From the IMG/VR virus record IMGVR_UViG_2690316166_000006, positions 1 to 24,678 of that record: a DNA stretch of 24,678 nucleotides; one strand, written 5' to 3'. The translations under genes and the position numbers were made by a program. The first letter of the stretch is position 1, and the number at the start of each line of letters is the position of its first letter. The notes under the pieces are model-generated. The model ran no database searches and was not told the origin of the DNA. It saw only the letters and a list, made by a program, of their open reading frames with translations. Shown piece after piece: positions 111-24,072 of this stretch. The stretch is from a virus (lineage: Duplodnaviria; Heunggongvirae; Uroviricota; Caudoviricetes).

Positions 111-3100
111 ATGGCAGTAAAGATTTCAGGTGTACTGAAAGACGGCACAGGAAAACCGGTACAGAACTGCACAATCCAGCTGAAAGCAAAACGTAACAGC
201 ACCACGGTGGTGGTGAACACGCTGGCCTCAGAAAATCCGGATGAAGCCGGGCGTTACAGCATGGACGTTGAGTACGGTCAGTACAGCGTTATTCTGTTGG
301 TGGAGGGATTCCCGCCGTCACATGCCGGGACCATCACCGTGTATGAAGATTCTCAACCCGGTACGCTGAATGATTTTCTCGGTGCCATGACGGAGGATGA
401 TGCCCGTCCGGAGGCACTGCGACGTTTTGAACTGATGGTGGAAGAGGTGGCGCGTAACGCGTCCGCGGTGGCACAGAACACAGCAGCCGCGAAGAAGTCA
501 GCCAGCGATGCCAGCACATCAGCCCGTGAGGCGGCAACCCATGCGACTGATGCTGCAGGCTCAGCACGCGCAGCCAGCACGTCAGCCGGACAGGCCGCGT
601 CGTCGGCTCAGTCAGCGTCTTCCAGCGCAGGAACGGCATCAGCAAAGGCCACTGAAGCATCAAAAAGTGCTGCCGCTGCAGAGTCCTCAAAAAGCGCGGC
701 GGCCACCAGTGCCGGTGCCGCGAAAACGTCTGAAACGAATGCTGCAGCGTCACAACAATCAGCAGCCACTTCTGCATCCACCGCGACCACGAAAGCGTCA
801 GAAGCTGCCACCTCAGCCCGGGATGCGTCGGCTTCAAAAGAGGCGGCAAAATCATCAGAAACGAGCGCAGCCTCGAGCGCCAGTAGTGCAGCTTCCTCGG
901 CAACGGCGGCAGGCAATTCCGCGAACGCGGCAAAAACGTCCGAGACGAACGCTAAGTCTTCTGAAACGGCAGCGGAACAGAGTGCCTCCGCAGCAGCAGA
1001 CTCAAAAACAGCGGCTGCATCATCTGCCAGCGCCGCGTCAACAAGTGCCGGGCAGGCCTCAGCCAGTGCCACCGCTGCCGGAAAGTCGGCAGAAAGTGCC
1101 GCATCGTCTGCTTCAACAGCCACAACGAAGGCTGGCGAAGCCACTGAACAGGCCAGCGCAGCAGCGAGTTCTGCTTCCGCAGCGAAGACATCCGAAACGA
1201 ACGCGAAAGCGTCGGAAACCAGCGCAGAATCCTCAAAAACGGCTGCCGCATCGTCCGCCAGTTCGGCGGCGTCATCGGCATCATCTGCGTCTGCTTCAAA
1301 AGATGAGGCGACCAGACAAGCGTCAGCAGCGAAGAGCAGCGCTACGACGGCATCCACGAAGGCGACAGAGGCAGCTGGCAGTGCGACGGCGGCAGCTCAG
1401 AGCAAAAGTACGGCGGAATCCGCGGCAACGCGCGCCGAGACAGCAGCTAAACGGGCAGAGGATATTGCATCCGCCGTGGCGCTTGAGGATGCAAGTACGA
1501 CGAAAAAGGGGATAGTACAGCTCAGCAGTGCGACCAACAGTACGTCTGAAACGCTGGCGGCAACGCCAAAGGCAGTAAAATCAGCCTATGACAATGCAGA
1601 GAAACGTCTGCAGAAAGACCAGAACGGCGCTGATATACCCGATAAGGGACGCTTCCTGAACAACATTAACGCGGTCAGTAAAACAGACTTTGCTGATAAG
1701 CGTGGTATGCGTTATGTGCGGGTTAACGCTCCTGCAGGTGCAACATCTGGAAAATATTATCCTGTTGTTGTTATGCGTTCTGCTGGCTCAGTAAGCGAAC
1801 TGGCATCAAGGGTCATTATCACCACGGCAACGCGAACCGCAGGCGATCCTATGAATAACTGCGAGTTTAACGGATTTGTTATGCCTGGTGGCTGGACTGA
1901 CAGGGGGCGTTATGCTTATGGAATGTTCTGGCAATATCAAAACAATGAACGAGCCATCCACTCAATAATGATGAGTAATAAGGGCGATGATTTGCGCTCT
2001 GTGTTCTATGTTGATGGCGCTGCTTTCCCTGTTTTTGCGTTTATCGAAGATGGCCTGTCAATATCCGCACCTGGTGCTGATCTCGTTGTTAATGATACGA
2101 CCTATAAGTTTGGGGCAACAAATCCAGCGACTGAATGTATCGCGGCGGACGTTATCCTTGATTTTAAGAGTGGGCGTGGTTTTTATGAGTCTCATTCGTT
2201 AATCGTTAACGATAACTTGTCGTGCAAAAAACTTTTTGCCACAGACGAAATTGTAGCGCGTGGTGGTAATCAGATTCGAATGATAGGTGGGGAGTATGGT
2301 GCATTATGGCGTAATGATGGCGCTAAAACTTACCTGCTGCTTACCAATCAAGGTGATGTTTATGGTGGCTGGAATACATTAAGACCGTTTGCTATTGATA
2401 ACGCAACCGGCGAACTGGTTATTGGAACCAAACTGTCCGCAAGTCTGAACGGTAATGCATTAACAGCAACAAAGCTGCAAACGCCAAGACTGGTTTCTGG
2501 TGTTGAGTTTGATGGTTCCAGAGATATTACTTTAACCGCTGCGCATGTTGCTGCTTTTGCCAGAAGAGCAACGGATACGTATGCCGATGCGGATGGGGGC
2601 GTTCCCTGGAATGCCGAATCAGGCGCTTACAATGTCACCCGCTCTGGCTACAGCTATATTCTGGTTAACTTCTATACCGGAGTCGGAAGTTGCCGGACCT
2701 TGCAGATGAAGGCGCATTACAGAAATGGTGGTCTGTTCTACCGTTCTTCAAGAGACGGTTATGGTTTTGAGGAAGATTGGGCAGAAGTTTATACCTCGAA
2801 AAATCTTCCACCAGAAAGCTACCCAGTCGGCGCACCAATCCCGTGGCCATCAGATACCGTTCCGTCTGGTTATGCCCTGATGCAGGGGCAGACTTTTGAC
2901 AAATCTGCATACCCGAAACTTGCAGCGGCTTATCCGTCAGGCGTTATTCCTGATATGCGTGGCTGGACGATTAAGGGCAAGCCCGCCAGTGGTCGTGCCG
3001 TATTGTCTCAGGAACAGGACGGCATTAAATCGCACACCCACAGCGCCAGCGCATCCAGTACGGATTTGGGTACGAAAACCACATCGTCGTTTGATTACGG

Positions 3101-3509
3101 TACTAAATCCACGAATAACACTGGTGCGCATACCCATAGTTTAAGTGGCAGCACGAATGCAGCTGGTAATCACAGCCATAGAGATGGCCGTCGATTTAAC
3201 CCCAGTGTTTTTAAAGATACTTATCAATATGGTTATACAAGCTCAGGTCAAAATACTTGGGGTGTACAAGGCTCAGTAGGTATGTCTACGGGGTGGTTAG
3301 CTAATACCAGTACAGATGGTAATCATAGCCACTCACTGTCCGGCACAGCAGCATCTGCAGGTGCACACGCACATACTGTCGGTATTGGTGCACACACGCA
3401 CTCCGTTGCGATTGGTTCACATGGACATACCATCACCGTTAACGCTGCTGGTAACGCGGAAAACACCGTCAAAAACATCGCATTTAACTATATTGTGAGG
3501 CTTGCATGA
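111..3509 (+). CDS. stf: Side tail fibre protein (lambda Stf / Rac StfR-like, about 1130 aa) with a divergent central region
   Basis: ORF 105..3509. The N-terminus [26 protein letters not shown] and the Ala/Ser-rich repeats match lambda Stf from memory. The C-terminus has His-rich HxH repeats ([43 protein letters not shown]) and ends [11 protein letters not shown]. The ATG at 111 is preferred over the GTG at 105. Confidence 0.9.
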
Positions 3510-4396
3510 TTACGCTCATTCTTTCTGCACCAGTAACAGAAATGGCTGAAGCATTTAAGCGGGTATTTGCAAACGCAGATAATGTGAATATTGTCGGAAA
3601 GCCATTTGAAACAATCAGAGAATTTGACTGCATGGTAAGTGCGGCAAATAGTTTCGGCCTGATGGATGGCGGCGTTGATGCCGCCATTACCGCATTCTTC
3701 GGTACTCAGTTACAGTCCCGCGTTCAGAATCATATTCTTCGTGAATATCTAGGCGAACAGCCTGTAGGTTCTGCATTTGTAATTGAAACGGGGCATAATC
3801 ATCACCCCTGGCTGGTACATGCGCCAACAATGCGTGTTCCGCTGACAATTGACGGAACAGACGCTGTATATAATGCAACCTGGGCCGCTCTGCTTGCCAT
3901 CTTTCAGCACAATAAAAACGCAACGACAGACAGGAAAATAAAGACGGTGGTATTCCCTGCAATGGGGGCCGGATGTGGTCAGGTTCCGTTTGAAAGCGTT
4001 GCCTGGCAAATGAAGCAGGCATGGGATAACTTTAATAAGAAAACAGAATCAATTTACTGGGAATACGCACACTCCCGCCAGTCGGCAGTATTTGGCACAT
4101 ATGCATACTGTCCGGGTAATTCTGTTTGCCGTTATGCGGATACTAAATATATTGGATGCGGCGATTATCGGACGTATTGCTCACGTTCCGGGCAGTTCTG
4201 TATTAGCCATGTGCATCAGGCTGATGACGTGCTGACTAATAATCGCTCTCGCCCTGATTCGCATACACACCGGTTTAATCCAGAAAATCCCGTAGGCAAT
4301 CTCACCTCTGGCGCACATAGCCACGGAAGTAGCATCGTTATTGGTGCTCCCACCCATACGCTCAATAAACAATATTCTGTCTCTGATATTAAGTAG
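3506..4396 (+). CDS. Macro-domain (ADP-ribose binding/processing family) protein with a Cys/His-rich C-terminal region resembling a fibre tip
   Basis: ORF 3506..4396, 296 aa. Motifs [26 protein letters not shown] and [22 protein letters not shown] fit the macro-domain signature. The C-terminus ([25 protein letters not shown]) echoes Stf tip motifs ([19 protein letters not shown]). The start ATGA overlaps the stf stop, with GAGG 5 nt upstream. Confidence 0.7.
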
Positions 4397-4404
4397 AGGT
4401 GAAC

Positions 4405-4980
4405 ATGGATTTTAGAATGACTGAACAACCACGGACCATAAAAATTTATAATTTGCTGGCCGGAACTAATGAATTTATTGGTGAAGGTGATGCATACATT
4501 CCACCTCATACAGGTCTACCTGCAAACAGTACCGATATTGCACCGCCAGATATTCCGGCAGGCTTCGTGGCTGTTTTCAACGGTGATGATGCATCGTGGC
4601 ATCTCGTTGAAGATCATCGTGGTAAAACGGTTTATGACGTGGCATCAGGGGACGCGTTATTTATTTCTGAACTCGGTCCGTTACCGGAAAATGTTACTTG
4701 GTTGTCGCCGGAAGGGGAATATCAGAAGTGGAACGGTACAGCTTGGGTGAAAGATGCAGAAGCAGAAAAACTATTCCGGATCCGGGAGGCGGAAGAAACA
4801 AAAAACAGCCTGATGCAGGTAGCCAGTGAGCATATTGCGCCGCTTCAGGATGCTGCAGATCTGGAAATCGCAACGGAGGAAGAAACCTCGTTGCTGGAAG
4901 CCTGGAAAAAGTATCGGGTGTTGCTGAACCGTGTTGATACATCACTATCTCCAGATATCGAGTGGCCAAGTCAACCATAA
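4405..4980 (+). CDS. tfa: Tail fibre assembly protein (lambda Tfa family)
   Basis: ORF 4399..4980. The sequence [57 protein letters not shown] and the C-terminal [24 protein letters not shown] match lambda Tfa from memory. The ATG at 4405 is preferred, with GAGGTG upstream. Confidence 0.9.
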
Positions 4981-10134: not shown

Positions 10135-10460
10135 GCAGCCACCTCGCGCACCGGAATACGGGCAGACAATACCAGGACAAACCGGCTGGCGAACTGGCGA
10201 CGAGCTTCCCGTTCAGATGACGCGATGGTGGAAAGATGATGGATGTGTGACTTTTTGTCTGTGCGAACGACTGCCGCAAATTTGAATTTGAACATGGTAT
10301 GCACTCTTGTTTGGTAAAACAGTGCTACCACCAGAGTTGAGAATCTCTATGGGGTGGTAGCCCAAGCGGGGTTCTCAACACCGGCCCAAACGACACCGGC
10401 CAGCCTTTCGGCTGCCCCACCTGAGCCACCATAATTCGGATATGCGCAGGCTCATACACA

Positions 10461-10484
10461 CAAAAAAACACGCTGGCGCGTGTT
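10461..10484 (-). terminator. Rho-independent terminator on the minus strand
   Basis: On the minus strand: stem acacgc / gcgtgt with loop gcca, then seven U (plus-strand A-run 10462-10468). Confidence 0.55.
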
Positions 10485-10594
10485 GTGCGTCGTTCGGATT
10501 TCGGGGTTGAGAGTCCCGGCTACGGGATTTACCGCAGCGAAGTAACTTTACCGTCAAAACGACGCACACGTCAATAATTTGCAAAGGCATTTTA
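10485..10594 (-). ncRNA. Candidate structured small RNA or leader upstream of the anti-immunity genes
   Basis: No credible ORF. A long-range inverted repeat gtgcgtcgtt (10485-10494) / aacgacgcac (10557-10566) encloses internal hairpins (cccggctacggg) and the region ends at the minus-strand terminator. Ends are not defined. Confidence 0.3.
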
Positions 10595-20098: not shown

Positions 20099-20655
20099 TG
20101 ATCACGTTTACCGACAAAGAACTGATTAAAGAAATCAAAGAGCGAATCGGTAGCCTGGACGTTCGAGACAATATTGAGCGCCGTGCTTATGAAATTGCAC
20201 TGGCATCGCTGGAAGCAGATCCAGTTGCTTATATTTTCAAACATCCGGCTGGAAAATTATTCTGGGCTTTAACGGATGAAAGCAATAAAGAGCAATCGGA
20301 CGTTATTCCTGTTTATGCCGCCCCTCCAGTGCCAGTAGTACCTGAAGAAAAACCAATGCCTAACCCTCTTAAAATGTACGCGGTTGATGCTGTTGCCGCT
20401 ATTGCAGAGGTGAGAGGCTGGAACGCCTGTCGTGCCGCTATGCTTCAGAGTCAAGGTAATTGCATTAAGGATGGTTGGATAAGCTGTAGTGAGCAAATGC
20501 CAGATGATGGTCGTATTCAGTTTTCTGTTTCACTTCCAGCAGCATGTGGTGGAGATAAATATTTTATTGATGGTGTATTTCAACCTTTGAGATATGAGCG
20601 TGACTGTGAAAAAGCGGTTGTGGCCGCTGGCGGTGTAGTTAATTGGGTTAAGTAA
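20098..20655 (+). CDS. Hypothetical protein (185 aa)
   Basis: ORF 20059..20655 trimmed to the ATG at 20098, which overlaps the upstream stop (TAATG) and has GGAGG upstream. Confidence 0.5.
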   Translation: MITFTDKELIKEIKERIGSLDVRDNIERRAYEIALASLEADPVAYIFKHPAGKLFWALTDESNKEQSDVIPVYAAPPVPVVPEEKPMPNPLKMYAVDAVAAIAEVRGWNACRAAMLQSQGNCIKDGWISCSEQMPDDGRIQFSVSLPAACGGDKYFIDGVFQPLRYERDCEKAVVAAGGVVNWVK

Positions 20656-20670
20656 TTTTTAGGAGGATTT

Positions 20671-20997
20671 ATGGCGCTGACACCGGCAGAACGGCAAAGA
20701 AGACGCAGGGAACGGTTGAAGAAGGAAGGAACATCAAGACGTGACTGGATTCTGGAACCTGACGAGTTACGTATGTTGGGGGAAATTTGTGTATTGCGTA
20801 GACCAGGGCGAGTTCCATATTCAGAGAACGAAGTCATCGGACTGCTGATCAGGAAAAACTATAAGGAGTTGCAGAAACAGCTATCTACTACTTGTCCGCG
20901 ATGTGGTCAAAAAATGCCTGTTTCAGAATGCATTTTTGATGGTGAAGGCTCATGCCACCTTACAACCACGAGGCTGAAACTTGCGCTCAAAGTGTGA
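20671..20997 (+). CDS. Hypothetical basic protein with a CPRCG zinc-ribbon-like motif (108 aa)
   Basis: ORF with AGGAGGA upstream. Arg-rich N-terminus (ERQRRRRERLKKEG). Confidence 0.5.
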   Translation: MALTPAERQRRRRERLKKEGTSRRDWILEPDELRMLGEICVLRRPGRVPYSENEVIGLLIRKNYKELQKQLSTTCPRCGQKMPVSECIFDGEGSCHLTTTRLKLALKV

Positions 20998-21005
20998 CTG
21001 GTCAC
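20994..21005. repeat. 12-bp palindrome GTGACTGGTCAC (GTGACYRGTCAC family, copy 3)
   Basis: Overlaps the stop of the 20671..20997 ORF and precedes the RBS of the small ORF at 21016. Confidence 0.4.
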
Positions 21006-21015
21006 GGAGGGATAA

Positions 21016-21171
21016 ATGGACAAAAAGGCATTGCTTTTTGAAATGATACGAAAACGGAGCGAAAAGAGCTTTTCTGATGGTGGTGATGGGCTTTTGAAAG
21101 TGGTTGGGCGAGGCGTAGGAAGGGAACATAAGTATCGGACTACAAAGATATTTAACCAGTTAATCCATTGA
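21016..21171 (+). CDS. Small ORF (51 aa)
   Basis: GGAGGG lies 6 nt upstream of the ATG. Not in the ORF track because it is under 60 aa. Confidence 0.3.
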   Translation: MDKKALLFEMIRKRSEKSFSDGGDGLLKVVGRGVGREHKYRTTKIFNQLIH

Positions 21172-21172
21172 A

Positions 21173-21189
21173 AGTTGGCTATAAAATTT
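21173..21189. promoter_or_regulatory. Operator-like motif AGTTGGCTATAAAATTT matching the cB-cro operator region
   Basis: 16 of 17 identical to 16768-16784 (AGCTGGCTATAAAATTT). Confidence 0.45.
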
Positions 21190-21198
21190 GAGTTTTAC

Positions 21199-21217
21199 CC
21201 TGTAATTTTATACAGTA
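21199..21217. promoter_or_regulatory. LexA (SOS) box CTGT-N8-ACAG
   Basis: cCTGTaattttatACAGta fits the E. coli SOS box pattern. It overlaps a promoter-like TTGAGT-17-TACAGT and lies 25 bp upstream of the ATG at 21240. No other CTGT-N8-ACAG site was seen on manual scanning. Confidence 0.6.
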
Positions 21218-21239
21218 TCAAATAACCTTTTTTAATTAA

Positions 21240-21458
21240 ATGGTATTAGATTCAATGACTGAAGCACCTGTATCAACTCTTGAAGAACTCGGATCAAACC
21301 TAAAAGACATCGACGCCGTTTTGGATCTGGTTAGCGTTGCTCTGGCTTCTCCAGAAGCCAGCTTGCATCTTGGCGAGATTTCACGACTTGTTAGTATGTC
21401 GCGGGAGATTGCTCAGAATTGCCAACAAGTTATTGCTGTTGAGTGTTTGCATCATTGA
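21240..21458 (+). CDS. Small acidic protein (72 aa); candidate SOS-inducible antirepressor
   Basis: ORF directly downstream of the LexA box and the operator-like site. No RBS seen. The function is inferred from context only. Confidence 0.4.
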   Translation: MVLDSMTEAPVSTLEELGSNLKDIDAVLDLVSVALASPEASLHLGEISRLVSMSREIAQNCQQVIAVECLHH

Positions 21459-21501
21459 TACACACCCCGCCCTTCTGGACGGGGTAGCGAAAAGGGTCTA
21501 A

Positions 21502-21789
21502 TCAATAGACGGCATTAATATTAATCGTTGCACCGCATGCTTGGGCATATTTTGATAAAGTTTTCATGCTTGCCCCTAAAGGATTGCTTTCCAGGCGGCT
21601 GATAGCTGACGGGCGCAATCCCATTCGTTCAGCCAGAGCTGACTTCGTTAAACCTGCTCTTTCCCTCATTTCGTATAACATTTCGACCATCTCCAGCTCT
21701 TTATCGGCCTCTTCATATCCTTTGATGGCTTCTGGAGTGTTGAGAAGTTTTTCTTTTACTTCGTTAAACGGGATGCCTTTCGCTTTCAT
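21502..21789 (-). CDS. HigA-like antitoxin (XRE-family HTH)
   Basis: 95 aa. LTKSALAERMGLRPSAISRLESNP is an HTH typical of HigA-type antitoxins. Sits downstream of, and overlapping, the toxin gene. Confidence 0.75.
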   Translation of the reverse strand: MKAKGIPFNEVKEKLLNTPEAIKGYEEADKELEMVEMLYEMRERAGLTKSALAERMGLRPSAISRLESNPLGASMKTLSKYAQACGATININAVY

Positions 21790-22100
21790 CAGTTCATCTC
21801 CTTCAGGCGAGTTCTGGCGATTTCGATAGCCTTCACCGGTGTTTTCTGTGTCTTTTTTACAAATGCATGCAATAGATAAATTTCGTTACCAGTCGCGTAG
21901 GCGTACAGCGTTCTTGCGATGTTTTTATCCCCTACTCGTAGTTCAAAAAGCCCTCCACCTATTACACGGCTATGGGGCATCTTCAGTTTGTTGCCTTCCT
22001 TCTCCAGTCGCTCAATTAATCTGGTCATGCGACCTCGCAAATCATCTGGTAGTTCAAGCAGTTCATCCAGTGCTGCAGGGTGGGTTATCACGTTAAACAT
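21789..22100 (-). CDS. HigB/RelE-superfamily toxin (phage Gp49-like family)
   Basis: 103 aa. LFELRVGDKNIARTLYAYATGNEIYLLHAFVKKTQKTP matches the Gp49-like killer-protein pattern. Toxin-first order is typical of higBA. Confidence 0.7.
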   Translation of the reverse strand: MFNVITHPAALDELLELPDDLRGRMTRLIERLEKEGNKLKMPHSRVIGGGLFELRVGDKNIARTLYAYATGNEIYLLHAFVKKTQKTPVKAIEIARTRLKEMN

Positions 22101-22158
22101 ATTATAGCCTCCATAGCCACAAAATACACCAAAACAAGAAAAAAGCGCAAATTAAAAA

Positions 22159-22176
22159 TTTCACTAAAAAGTGAAA
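22159..22176. promoter_or_regulatory. Inverted repeat TTTCACT-AAAA-AGTGAAA upstream of the toxin gene; candidate autoregulatory operator
   Basis: 7-bp arms with a 4-bp spacer, about 60 bp upstream of the toxin start. Confidence 0.45.
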
Positions 22177-22265
22177 AATAACACTGGATGTGTTCGTTTG
22201 GCAGAGTTACAGTTCGTGTCATTGAGGGGCAATAACCCACTAACTATATGAATTTGGAGGATATT

Positions 22266-22487
22266 ATGAATTATCAAGGTAACGAAAAAATGCGCGACGA
22301 CGTTGCGGAGATAGCTAACGAACTGTATGAGTTGTGGCAGAAGGTTGAACGTTTCGAAAAGGAATATGGTTTCAACAGTACCAACCTGGCAGACCGACTG
22401 GCTGGTCGCTTAGTTGGGACTATGGGGCCAAAACTGGCTGAGTTGAACCGCTTTATGGCTGATGTTGATTTCCAGTTTCAAGATTGA
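22266..22487 (+). CDS. Small hypothetical protein (73 aa)
   Basis: ORF 22248..22487. The ATG at 22266 is preferred, with GGAGG upstream. Confidence 0.45.
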   Translation: MNYQGNEKMRDDVAEIANELYELWQKVERFEKEYGFNSTNLADRLAGRLVGTMGPKLAELNRFMADVDFQFQD

Positions 22488-22500
22488 TTAGAGAGGCGTT

Positions 22501-22728
22501 ATGAATATTAATGAAATTCGTGGAAATATGACTGAAGCGGCCCTGAGTGTGGAATGTGTTATGCGTGGATACCCACGCATTTCCCTGAAAGAGTTAAGCG
22601 AAGCCTGTTTTTTGAGTCAAGCTGCCGTTGAATTTATCATCGAACAGATGATCTGTTTTGGGGTTGCAAAGCGTAGCGGGTCTGGTCGATATTCTTTGAC
22701 CGATGAATATAAGCAGGCAACTTTCTAA
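22501..22728 (+). CDS. Small hypothetical protein (75 aa)
   Basis: ORF with GAGAGG upstream. Confidence 0.45.
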   Translation: MNINEIRGNMTEAALSVECVMRGYPRISLKELSEACFLSQAAVEFIIEQMICFGVAKRSGSGRYSLTDEYKQATF

Positions 22729-22731
22729 AAA

Positions 22732-22753
22732 CTGTGCGACCACGGTCGCACAG
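22732..22753. promoter_or_regulatory. sopC-like centromere candidate CTGTGCGACC-AC-GGTCGCACAG
   Basis: 22-bp palindrome, the longest of the three copies, just after the stop of the preceding ORF. Confidence 0.5.
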
Positions 22754-22837
22754 CACAAAAACGAAAAAGCTTGGCAAAATTACGGTTTTTAGTTATTGTT
22801 TTGTTAAGTTGGGTTTTTTGTACCCAACAGCCAACAA

Positions 22838-22861
22838 GCCGCCTTTATGGCGGTTTTTTTG
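22838..22861 (+). terminator. Rho-independent terminator
   Basis: Stem ccgcc / ggcgg with loop tttat, then seven T. Preceded by a hairpin ttgggt-tttttg-tacccaa and followed by a 10-bp stem gcaggacaag / cttgtcctgc (22878-22903). Confidence 0.5.
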
Positions 22862-22995
22862 TGCCTGAAAAGTGGGCGCAGGACAAGTTGCAGCTTGTCC
22901 TGCGGTCAACCCATGCCAGAGCTATAGGCTGAACCTAAAGCCCACCCGCGATGCGCATCGCCGGGTTAGCTTACCCAGGCAAAAAAATAATAGCT

Positions 22996-24072
22996 ATGTT
23001 CAAAACCACTAATATTCATGGCGCGCAACTCGTTTGCGCAGATTCTCTGCAATTTATCAAAACCATCCCTGATAACTCGGTCAATTTGATTGCAACAGAC
23101 CCACCATACTTCGGCGTAAAGGCTAACGCATGGGATAACCAGTGGGATAGCGATGCTGACTTTTTGGGGTGGATTGATGAATTTTTGGCAGAATTTTGGC
23201 GGATATTGGCCCCTAATGGCAGCCTGTATATGTTTACCGGCTCTCGCCTTGCGTCAAAAATTGAATTATTAACTCGCGACCGTTTCAATGTTCTGAACCA
23301 TATCATTTGGGCTAAACCCAGTGGTATGTGGCGCGGTTGTCATAAAGAAAGTTTAAGGGCTTATTTTCCTGCCACTGAAAGAATATTATTTGCAGAGCAT
23401 TACGGCGCGTCAGGTTATGCTAAAGGTCAGTCAGGTTATGCTTCAAAATGTGCAGATTTAAGAAAAAATATTTTTTCTCCACTAATTGATGCTTTTTCGC
23501 TGGCTCGCCGTCAGTTAGATATATCAGCCGCAGACATTAATTCAGCAACAGGAAAGCAGATGTGTTCGCACTGGTTTTCTTATTCGCAGTGGCGGCTTCC
23601 ATCATTAAGTGATTTTAATAAACTATGCGAATTATTTCGCAGGAAGGCAGATTCACTCGGTGTCCCGTGTCCATATCCTTTTAATGTTGATTATTCAGAA
23701 CATGAAAAGCGTTATAGCGATCTGAAATTGCGTTATGAGGAAGTAAAGAAGCAGTATGATGATTTGAAGGCTCAGTATGAAAATTTGCGCCGCCCATTTC
23801 ATGTTACTGCTGATGTACCTTATACCGATGTATGGGAGTTTCCTCCTGTGCAATATTATCCTGGCAAGCACCCATGTGAAAAACCTGCAGCGATGATGGA
23901 ACATATTATAAAAAGTAGTTCCCGCCCCGGAGATATCGTTGCCGATTTCTTTATGGGATCAGGCTCTACTATTAAAGCCGCGCTGAAGTTAGGTCGTCAG
24001 GCAATCGGTATTGAGATTGAGGGTGAACGTTATCTTCAGACAGTTGATGAAGTGAAAAAGTTATTTGAGTAA
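22996..24072 (+). CDS. Orphan beta-class DNA methyltransferase, probably N6-adenine
   Basis: DPPY (motif IV) precedes the FxGxG-type motif DIVADFFMGSGST (motif I). The start could be 22951 or 22996; neither has a good RBS. No restriction endonuclease partner is in the window. Confidence 0.75.
   Translation: MFKTTNIHGAQLVCADSLQFIKTIPDNSVNLIATDPPYFGVKANAWDNQWDSDADFLGWIDEFLAEFWRILAPNGSLYMFTGSRLASKIELLTRDRFNVLNHIIWAKPSGMWRGCHKESLRAYFPATERILFAEHYGASGYAKGQSGYASKCADLRKNIFSPLIDAFSLARRQLDISAADINSATGKQMCSHWFSYSQWRLPSLSDFNKLCELFRRKADSLGVPCPYPFNVDYSEHEKRYSDLKLRYEEVKKQYDDLKAQYENLRRPFHVTADVPYTDVWEFPPVQYYPGKHPCEKPAAMMEHIIKSSSRPGDIVADFFMGSGSTIKAALKLGRQAIGIEIEGERYLQTVDEVKKLFE

Follow-up and report, generated by a model that had tools for sequence, protein, structure and literature searches.

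The Pfam family Gp49 (PF05973) takes its name from gp49 of phage N15. The toxins of the N15 cassette and of the cassettes studied with it are reportedly bactericidal in Escherichia coli, and an additional, weaker promoter is said to precede the antitoxin gene in these cassettes. As presented in the papers that cite the original study (Dziewit et al. 2007, J Bacteriol 189:1983; cited in PMC2701414, PMC5906591, and PMC3606827), N15 gp49-gp48 is a published "toxin-antitoxin-stabilizing" system, studied alongside tad-ata of pAMI2 and s045-s044 of SXT, and its toxin is both toxic and neutralized by the cognate antitoxin. More generally, DUF891/COG4679 proteins, N15 gp49 among them, are toxic components accompanied by XRE antitoxins in toxin-first operons (PMC2701414, PMC5906591, PMC3606827, PMC3581621), and a 2025 review describes the PF_gp49 proteins as ribosome-dependent mRNA-cleaving toxins with a toxin-first gene order (PMC11980606). 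With regard to regulation, the palindromes in the promoter region of the HigBA operon of Streptococcus pneumoniae are binding sites of the HigBA complex (PMC7984235), while in Acinetobacter baumannii the GP49-type HigA2 is a repressor of its own promoter, and a stronger one in the complex (PMC5906591).

Genomic Setting of the Pair

The 24,678-nucleotide stretch of viral DNA analyzed here (hereafter the window) is an N15-like linear plasmid prophage. This is the setting that a first-pass annotation, made from the sequence alone, had proposed, and it is borne out by the gene content: the window encodes a protelomerase, SopA and SopB, a large RepA-like protein, a CB-like repressor and a Q antiterminator, as well as a methylase. 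Over the 3 kb around the pair (20500-23500) the identity to the Ravinvirus phages PhiR46_1 and YDC107_1 is approximately 96%, and near-identical toxin-antitoxin pairs are present in both. An 801-bp stretch with the pair was found in 17 of 5,426 complete E. coli genomes, on N15-like plasmids of ~46 kb or more in all 17 cases and on a chromosome in none. In RefSeq the two products carry the labels "type II toxin-antitoxin system RelE/ParE family toxin" and HTH protein.

The pair is the gp49/gp48 addiction module of N15 in a close N15 relative, and as such it is already known and annotated; the first-pass annotation had rightly read a toxin-antitoxin pair, without recognizing the N15 module itself. 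Gene order, gene overlap, the slot between gp47 and gp50, and an upstream palindrome are the same in both phages, which differ here by a handful of substitutions, a one-base deletion in the promoter spacer, and the -10 element (TGTATT in the window, TATATT in N15). Tad-Ata of Paracoccus aminophilus pAMI2 and s045-s044 of SXT belong to the same family, with a COG4679/DUF891 toxin, an XRE antitoxin, and the toxin gene first (PMC2701414), but their sequences are distant and they come from other kinds of mobile element; the likeness is one of family description.

Directly after the tail-fibre gene of the window comes a gene (3506-4396, plus strand) whose 296-aa product has a Macro domain (Pfam E=3.9e-18) and a DarG-like PADLOC match that is very weak (E=0.0077); it may have a role related to ADP-ribose, as an accessory or a counter-defence gene. 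Rfam matches at gathering level comprise IS009 at 4748-4946 (plus strand), and C4 antisense RNA at 10350-10436 and isrK at 10463-10538 (both minus strand), the latter two adjoining each other.

Toxin and Antitoxin Genes

The toxin gene (21789..22100, minus strand; 103 aa) is the orthologue of N15 gp49, with an amino acid identity of 92.2% to this protein and of 91.3% to phiKO2 Gp49. A strong Shine-Dalgarno sequence, GGAGG, lies at 22108-22112 on the same strand and is kept in aligned relatives. The product matches Pfam Gp49 over its full length (positions 1-90 of 90; E=2.5e-29, 101.6 bits against a cut-off of 23.9), which is its only Pfam family at E<=0.01, and the PHROGs concur with the Pfam family calls for both members of the pair. 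Neither of the canonical HigB families, PF05015 (HigB-like) and PF09907 (HigB), matched the toxin, and NCBIfam has no model for it. Since the toxin fits no canonical HigB Pfam family, the name HigB applies only loosely, and the "HigB/HigA" label of the first-pass annotation is appropriate in the broad sense of the Gp49 subfamily but not in that of the canonical families. The assignment of the toxin to Gp49 and the RelE superfamily in the same annotation agrees with Pfam as well as with structure matches: a family profile built from 14 members matches only GP49-type HigB structures, namely S. pneumoniae HigB (6AF3, E=5.4e-13) and Mycobacterium tuberculosis HigB1 (7NBU, E=5.4e-9; 7NBU/7AWK, ~6e-9). 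Between the toxin Shine-Dalgarno sequence and the ATG there is also a perfect TATAAT (22101-22106, minus strand), too near the ATG to serve the toxin; relatives, even distant loci, have TATACT or TATGCT there.

The comparison with HigB1 extends to the active site. In the cryo-EM study of ribosome-bound M. tuberculosis HigB1 (PMC9098466), the A-site codon pocket consists of K58, E66, R68, N73, R77, F93, K95, Q98, and K99, and in a sequence alignment these residues correspond to R45, E53, R55, N60, R63, F80, K82, Q85, and K86 of the window toxin, respectively. Most of these equivalents are invariant across the 14-member family profile, and the invariant residues of the family include H43, E53, R55, R63, K82, and K83. 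Judging by the alignment, the toxin possesses a RelE-type catalytic pocket with the basic residues, Glu, and Phe of HigB-TAC and S. pneumoniae HigB. This conservation of pocket residues makes the toxin, by homology, very probably an active ribosome-dependent mRNase. M. tuberculosis HigB1, the toxin of the TAC system (7NBU, 7AWK), is likewise a Pfam Gp49 member and cleaves A-site codons on the ribosome, and its pocket residues have conserved counterparts in the window toxin; however, TAC needs a SecB-like chaperone, to which its antitoxin is addicted, whereas the window has no chaperone gene. The best solved relative of both window proteins is S. pneumoniae HigBA (6AF3/6AF4), whose toxin is a ribonuclease (PMC7984235), although identity is low, the toxin has 141 aa, and the S. 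pneumoniae locus has four palindromes as opposed to one clear dyad in the window.

The antitoxin gene (21502..21789, minus strand; 95 aa) is the orthologue of N15 gp48, to which its product is 86% identical, against 83% for phiKO2 Gp48. An N-terminal segment of ~35 aa precedes an XRE-type HTH at residues 36-88. That this protein is an XRE-HTH antitoxin, as had been read from the sequence, finds support in the match to Pfam HTH_3 (E=1.6e-12) and in family profile matches to M. tuberculosis HigA2 (7EWC, 7.9e-9), S. pneumoniae HigA (6AF3_B, 4.8e-8), HigA3, and HipB. The ORFs are exactly as first described, a toxin-first minus-strand pair of 103 and 95 aa with overlapping stop and start; the overlap is a single base (TGATG, base 21789). 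The antitoxin Shine-Dalgarno sequence, AAGGAG, is likewise strong and is situated within the end of the toxin ORF (21798-21803, minus strand), an arrangement that together with the TGATG overlap suggests translational coupling. A toxin gene followed by an XRE-HTH antitoxin gene is found in at least 140 related loci, and the slot between gp47 and gp50 is that of N15. We also considered an antitoxin-specific internal promoter within the toxin ORF and rejected it: there is no consensus match in the window, and none is active in A. baumannii (PMC5906591).

No third minus-strand gene follows the antitoxin; instead, a gp47-like ORF (21240-21458, plus strand) comes next in convergent orientation, and it has a secondary PHROG match to phrog_10889, annotated as anti-repressor (E=1.4e-6). 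The convergent gap between this ORF and the antitoxin gene contains a GC-rich hairpin, ACCCCGCCC/GGACGGGGT (21464..21485), a possible operon end; it has no T-run, and the terminator scan made no call there.

Addiction Module or Defence Element

The first-pass annotation had offered two roles for the pair, an addiction module or an abortive-infection element. The former agrees with what citing papers report of the N15 orthologue, 92% (toxin) and 86% (antitoxin) identical to the window proteins, and the toxicity, neutralization, and replicon stabilization described for N15 would by analogy extend to the pair of the window. The latter, in which the main role would be anti-phage abortive infection rather than plasmid addiction, has a precedent in the family: in E. 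coli, a PF_gp49 HigB that is part of a toxin-antitoxin-chaperone module brings about abortive infection when a lambda tail protein is sensed (PMC11980606). In the window, however, no SecB-like chaperone gene lies downstream of the antitoxin, which sets the pair apart from toxin-antitoxin-chaperone modules. The C-terminal half of the toxin does match the PADLOC model NsnC (E=2.6e-7), but just residues 43-95 are aligned, with the last part of a model of 293 positions; this partial coverage indicates a shared domain and not membership of a defence system, which we therefore rejected. Moreover, in the citing papers the orthologue figures as a stabilizing system, and in E. coli the pair is confined to N15-like plasmids of ~46 kb or more. 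We thus consider a primarily defensive role unlikely, and the abortive-infection proposal finds no backing in the gene content or in the domain match.

Conservation and Covariation of the Upstream Dyad

A perfect dyad, TTTCACT-TTTT-AGTGAAA, occupies 22159..22176, its centre ~67 nt upstream of the toxin ATG and its half-site centres 11 bp apart; we regard it as the putative operator of an antitoxin dimer. The inverted repeat TTTCACT-N4-AGTGAAA is exact, as reported in the first-pass annotation, and unique in the window. Taken alone, it is no more than chance expectation: the intergenic region has 165 bp and a GC content of 35%, a perfect repeat with 7-bp arms and a 0-8 nt spacer arises in 10% of its dinucleotide shuffles, and the window as a whole holds 65 perfect 7-bp-arm repeats. 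These figures would suit a functionless by-product of AT-rich sequence. Yet the dyad does not vary among the window, N15, and phiKO2, where the flanking DNA shares no more than ~75% identity, and it is unchanged in YDC107_1 too. We accordingly base its reality on this invariance and on the covariation of one arm with the other, and not on the repeat itself.

To follow the dyad across the family, 147 related loci (denoted L below) were fetched and the toxin start was located in each. In every N15-like locus the best dyad match falls 70-79 nt before the ATG. Several of the more diverged loci have variants that differ in sequence but preserve the symmetry: TTTCTCT-TTTT-AGAGAAA in L006 (Xenorhabdus), TTTCTAT-TTTA-ATAGAAA in L007, TTTATCT-TTTT-AGATAAA in L135, TTTATC-N6-GATAAA in L139, and TTTAGTTA/TAACTAAA in L015. 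The variants of L006, L007, L135, and L139 keep a constant spacing. Among 28 distinct relatives the arm pairs switch jointly, from CAC/GTG to CTC/GAG, CTAT/ATAG, or ATC/GAT. To quantify the covariation, 28 distinct upstream regions were put into an unbiased MAFFT alignment and pairs were counted on it. Over the seven arm positions, 91.8% of cells are paired; shuffles give 84.9%, with 0 of 500 attaining the value of the real alignment, and sliding the partner gives 49% or less. The covariation score of the dyad is 0.173, compared with 0.066 in shuffles (0/500), and changes on both sides are seen at three of the seven arm positions, in 9 cells (0/500 shuffles).

Two loci separate the dyad from its usual neighbourhood. 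L006 is located on a 174-kb contig among unrelated neighbours, and in L127 the pair comes after a protelomerase-like gene, an HTH gene, and a RelE-like gene; both are without gp50 and gp51, and both have the dyad in the same place. The dyad is therefore part of the module, and selection acts on its symmetry. The constraint is nevertheless not absolute, since one arm is mismatched in many close relatives. With invariance amid diverged flanks, symmetric compensatory changes, and a fixed spacing to the ATG in three genomic contexts, we regard a functionless dyad as extremely improbable. L127, an IMG/VR contig, represents the pair at a different insertion site in another telomere phage, and it carries a second, unrelated RelE/ParE-like toxin ORF (2052-2318, plus strand) directly before the gp49/gp48-type pair.

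The recognition helix of the antitoxin tends to vary with the half-site, PSAIS occurring with CAC, PSAIT or PSGIN with CTC, QSGIN with CTAT, QSALN or PSNIN with ATC, and PSTIT with AGTT; an exception is L008, where PSAIT accompanies a CAC site.

Predicted Promoter Position and Probable Operator Role

The consensus promoter scan did not call a toxin-antitoxin promoter, which was for this reason read by eye from the aligned relatives. A putative -35, TTGCGC, lies at 22145..22150 and a putative -10 at 22121..22128 (both minus strand), the latter being TGTATT (N16) or TATTTT (N18). The arrangement TTGnnn-N17-TATATT is kept in N15, phiKO2, L006, L127 (TTGACA), L132 (TTGACG), L135, and L015, and ends ~25-30 nt before the ATG; the -10 of the window falls in the same place in the alignment as TATATT in N15 and phiKO2 and TATAAT in L008 and L128. 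On this predicted promoter the dyad would end ~8 bp upstream of the -35 and be centred near -53, in a very AT-rich stretch, and it overlaps neither predicted element.

Classical HigBA (Rts1/Proteus vulgaris and E. coli K-12) is likewise toxin-first with an HTH antitoxin and is autoregulated through palindromes (PMC11980606), but its operators overlap the promoter region (PMC5906591), whereas the dyad of the window lies upstream of the predicted -35, unlike the classical HigA operators. The palindrome had been placed by the first-pass annotation in the promoter region and interpreted as an operator. The position upstream of the toxin stands, but the dyad is ~8 bp upstream of the probable -35 instead of over the core promoter; the operator reading gains from the covariation and from the co-travel with the pair, while the location off the core promoter leaves that role as one we infer. 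An operator for the antitoxin or the toxin-antitoxin complex is the most likely identity of the dyad, as far as comparative sequence data can indicate. From such a site, repression might proceed by occlusion of an UP element, or by the complex spreading or looping.

A second, promoter-proximal operator, for which an imperfect copy at 22121-22143 was the candidate, was dismissed in the window (p=0.49 by shuffling); such a site is convincing only in the Gilliamella-type locus L139 (p=0.003, shuffling). Inverted matches of 9 to 10 nt, the pair varying with the lineage, link DNA upstream of the palindrome with the first codons of the toxin. Judged against a fair search space, CATCCAGTG/CACTGGATG in the window (22064-22072 vs 22182-22190) has p=0.07, a seemingly compensated pair in N15 has p=0.30, and another 10-mer pair, from the Klebsiella lineage, has p=0.03; all three are attributed to chance. 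In L005 the inverted match is to toxin codons 13-16.

A Possible Terminator or Small RNA at the Dyad

The N15 record labels the palindrome a terminator: in GenBank a stem_loop is annotated there on the gene-49 strand as a putative rho-independent terminator. The palindrome could be a minus-strand RNA hairpin. It might insulate the toxin-antitoxin promoter as a weak intrinsic terminator, or else close a small RNA of ~85 nt at its 3' end, the transcript beginning at a promoter-like site (22270..22243, minus strand) and ending at the hairpin followed by UUUUU. In the window a T-run does follow the stem, and the promoter-like site upstream on the same strand reads TTCATA-16-TATAGT. The RyhB model (RF00057) gives a full-length, sub-threshold match to 22223..22152 (minus strand; 26.3 bits, E=0.017, or 0.0039 on a shorter stretch) with the palindrome as its terminator; in this Rfam evalue-mode scan, however, the score is less than half the gathering value of 55. 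Arm covariation is predicted equally by an RNA or DNA hairpin, and it suits a hairpin as well as it does a protein-binding site, some single changes being compatible with G-U pairing (TTTCGCT, GGTGAAA).

The structure itself argues otherwise. The hairpin is weak (~-6 kcal/mol, z ~-2), with two GC pairs of seven, it was rejected in the terminator scan, and RNAalifold on 19 relatives returned no conserved pairs. Loci of the Klebsiella lineage commonly have a central C-U mismatch, which would break the 7-bp AU-rich stem. N15 and phiKO2 have poor U-tails (UUUGCC and AUUCUC, respectively), and the dyad thus has neither the stable GC-rich stem nor the conserved U-tract of an intrinsic terminator. 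The -10 of the upstream promoter-like site is conserved in neither N15, where it is lost (TGCGGT), nor phiKO2, and L006 and L127 keep the dyad without the conserved block upstream. A transcribed hairpin is in our view very unlikely, and an operator is preferred.

A Possible Shared Operator with gp50-gp51

The upstream side of the dyad faces gp50 and gp51, which are read divergently from the pair. Two plus-strand blocks, CAGAGTTACAGTT (22201-22213) and CTGGATGTG (22182-22190), are nearly invariant in loci with a gp50 neighbour and absent otherwise; in their general form, CAGAGTTAnA and CTGGATG, they are conserved wherever gp50 is the neighbour, and L006 and L127 are without them. They contain a putative plus-strand promoter, TGGATG (22185-22190)-N17-TACAGT (22208-22213), 8 bp from the dyad, a gap that mirrors the 8 bp to TTGCGC on the opposite side; in L135 the corresponding elements are TGGATG-N17-TATATT. 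It could therefore be envisaged that in N15-type phages the dyad is a shared operator amid back-to-back promoters and that the antitoxin also controls gp50-gp51, which would supplement rather than replace autoregulation of the pair. Nevertheless, the gp50 promoter was read by eye, is a weak match to consensus, and was not called by the scanner, and in L006 and L127 the dyad exists independently of gp50. We find this arrangement improbable. Its specific form is a quite doubtful proposition: with the dyad midway, 8 bp from each -35, the level of a labile antitoxin would set transcription of gp50-gp51 (winged-helix) as well as of the toxin-antitoxin operon. If true, the addiction module of N15-like phage-plasmids would be coupled to the control of adjacent prophage genes.

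A short GC-rich hairpin (22226-22238; GGG/CCC in the window) lies in the interval from the conserved blocks to the gp50 start, with equivalents in L100 (GGGG-TTTT-CCCC) and in L135, L128, and L007 (GCGGG-TGGCG-TCCCGC). It seems to keep its pairing despite the different sequences, which MAFFT misaligned.

Proposed Mechanism and Significance

Taking the evidence together, we consider it very likely that the pair is a gp49/gp48 type II operon (Tad-Ata type, Pfam Gp49) of an N15-like linear plasmid prophage that acts by post-segregational killing, with the dyad most likely serving autoregulation. The RelE-fold toxin, encoded by the first gene, would most likely cleave mRNA in the ribosomal A site. 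Its antitoxin, encoded by the second gene and presumably coupled in translation through the one-base overlap, would neutralize the toxin with its N-terminal part and bind DNA as a dimer with its XRE-HTH domain. As long as the prophage is present the antitoxin would be replenished; upon loss of the plasmid the antitoxin, predicted to be the more labile of the two, would decay, and the toxin would stop growth or kill the cell. By acting in plasmid-free cells in this manner, the toxin would stabilize the low-copy linear plasmid. The antitoxin or the complex would most likely bind TTTCACT-N4-AGTGAAA and autoregulate the operon, and occupancy of the dyad may block an AT-rich UP-element region rather than the core promoter.

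Beyond correct annotation the significance of the locus is small: the pair accounts in part for the persistence of N15-like linear plasmid prophages in Escherichia. The sole new detail comes from the comparison of relatives, by which the upstream dyad is a site under selection, tied to the module, and probably bound by protein rather than a terminator, and the half-site variants set against the recognition helices of the antitoxins provide a simple, testable map.
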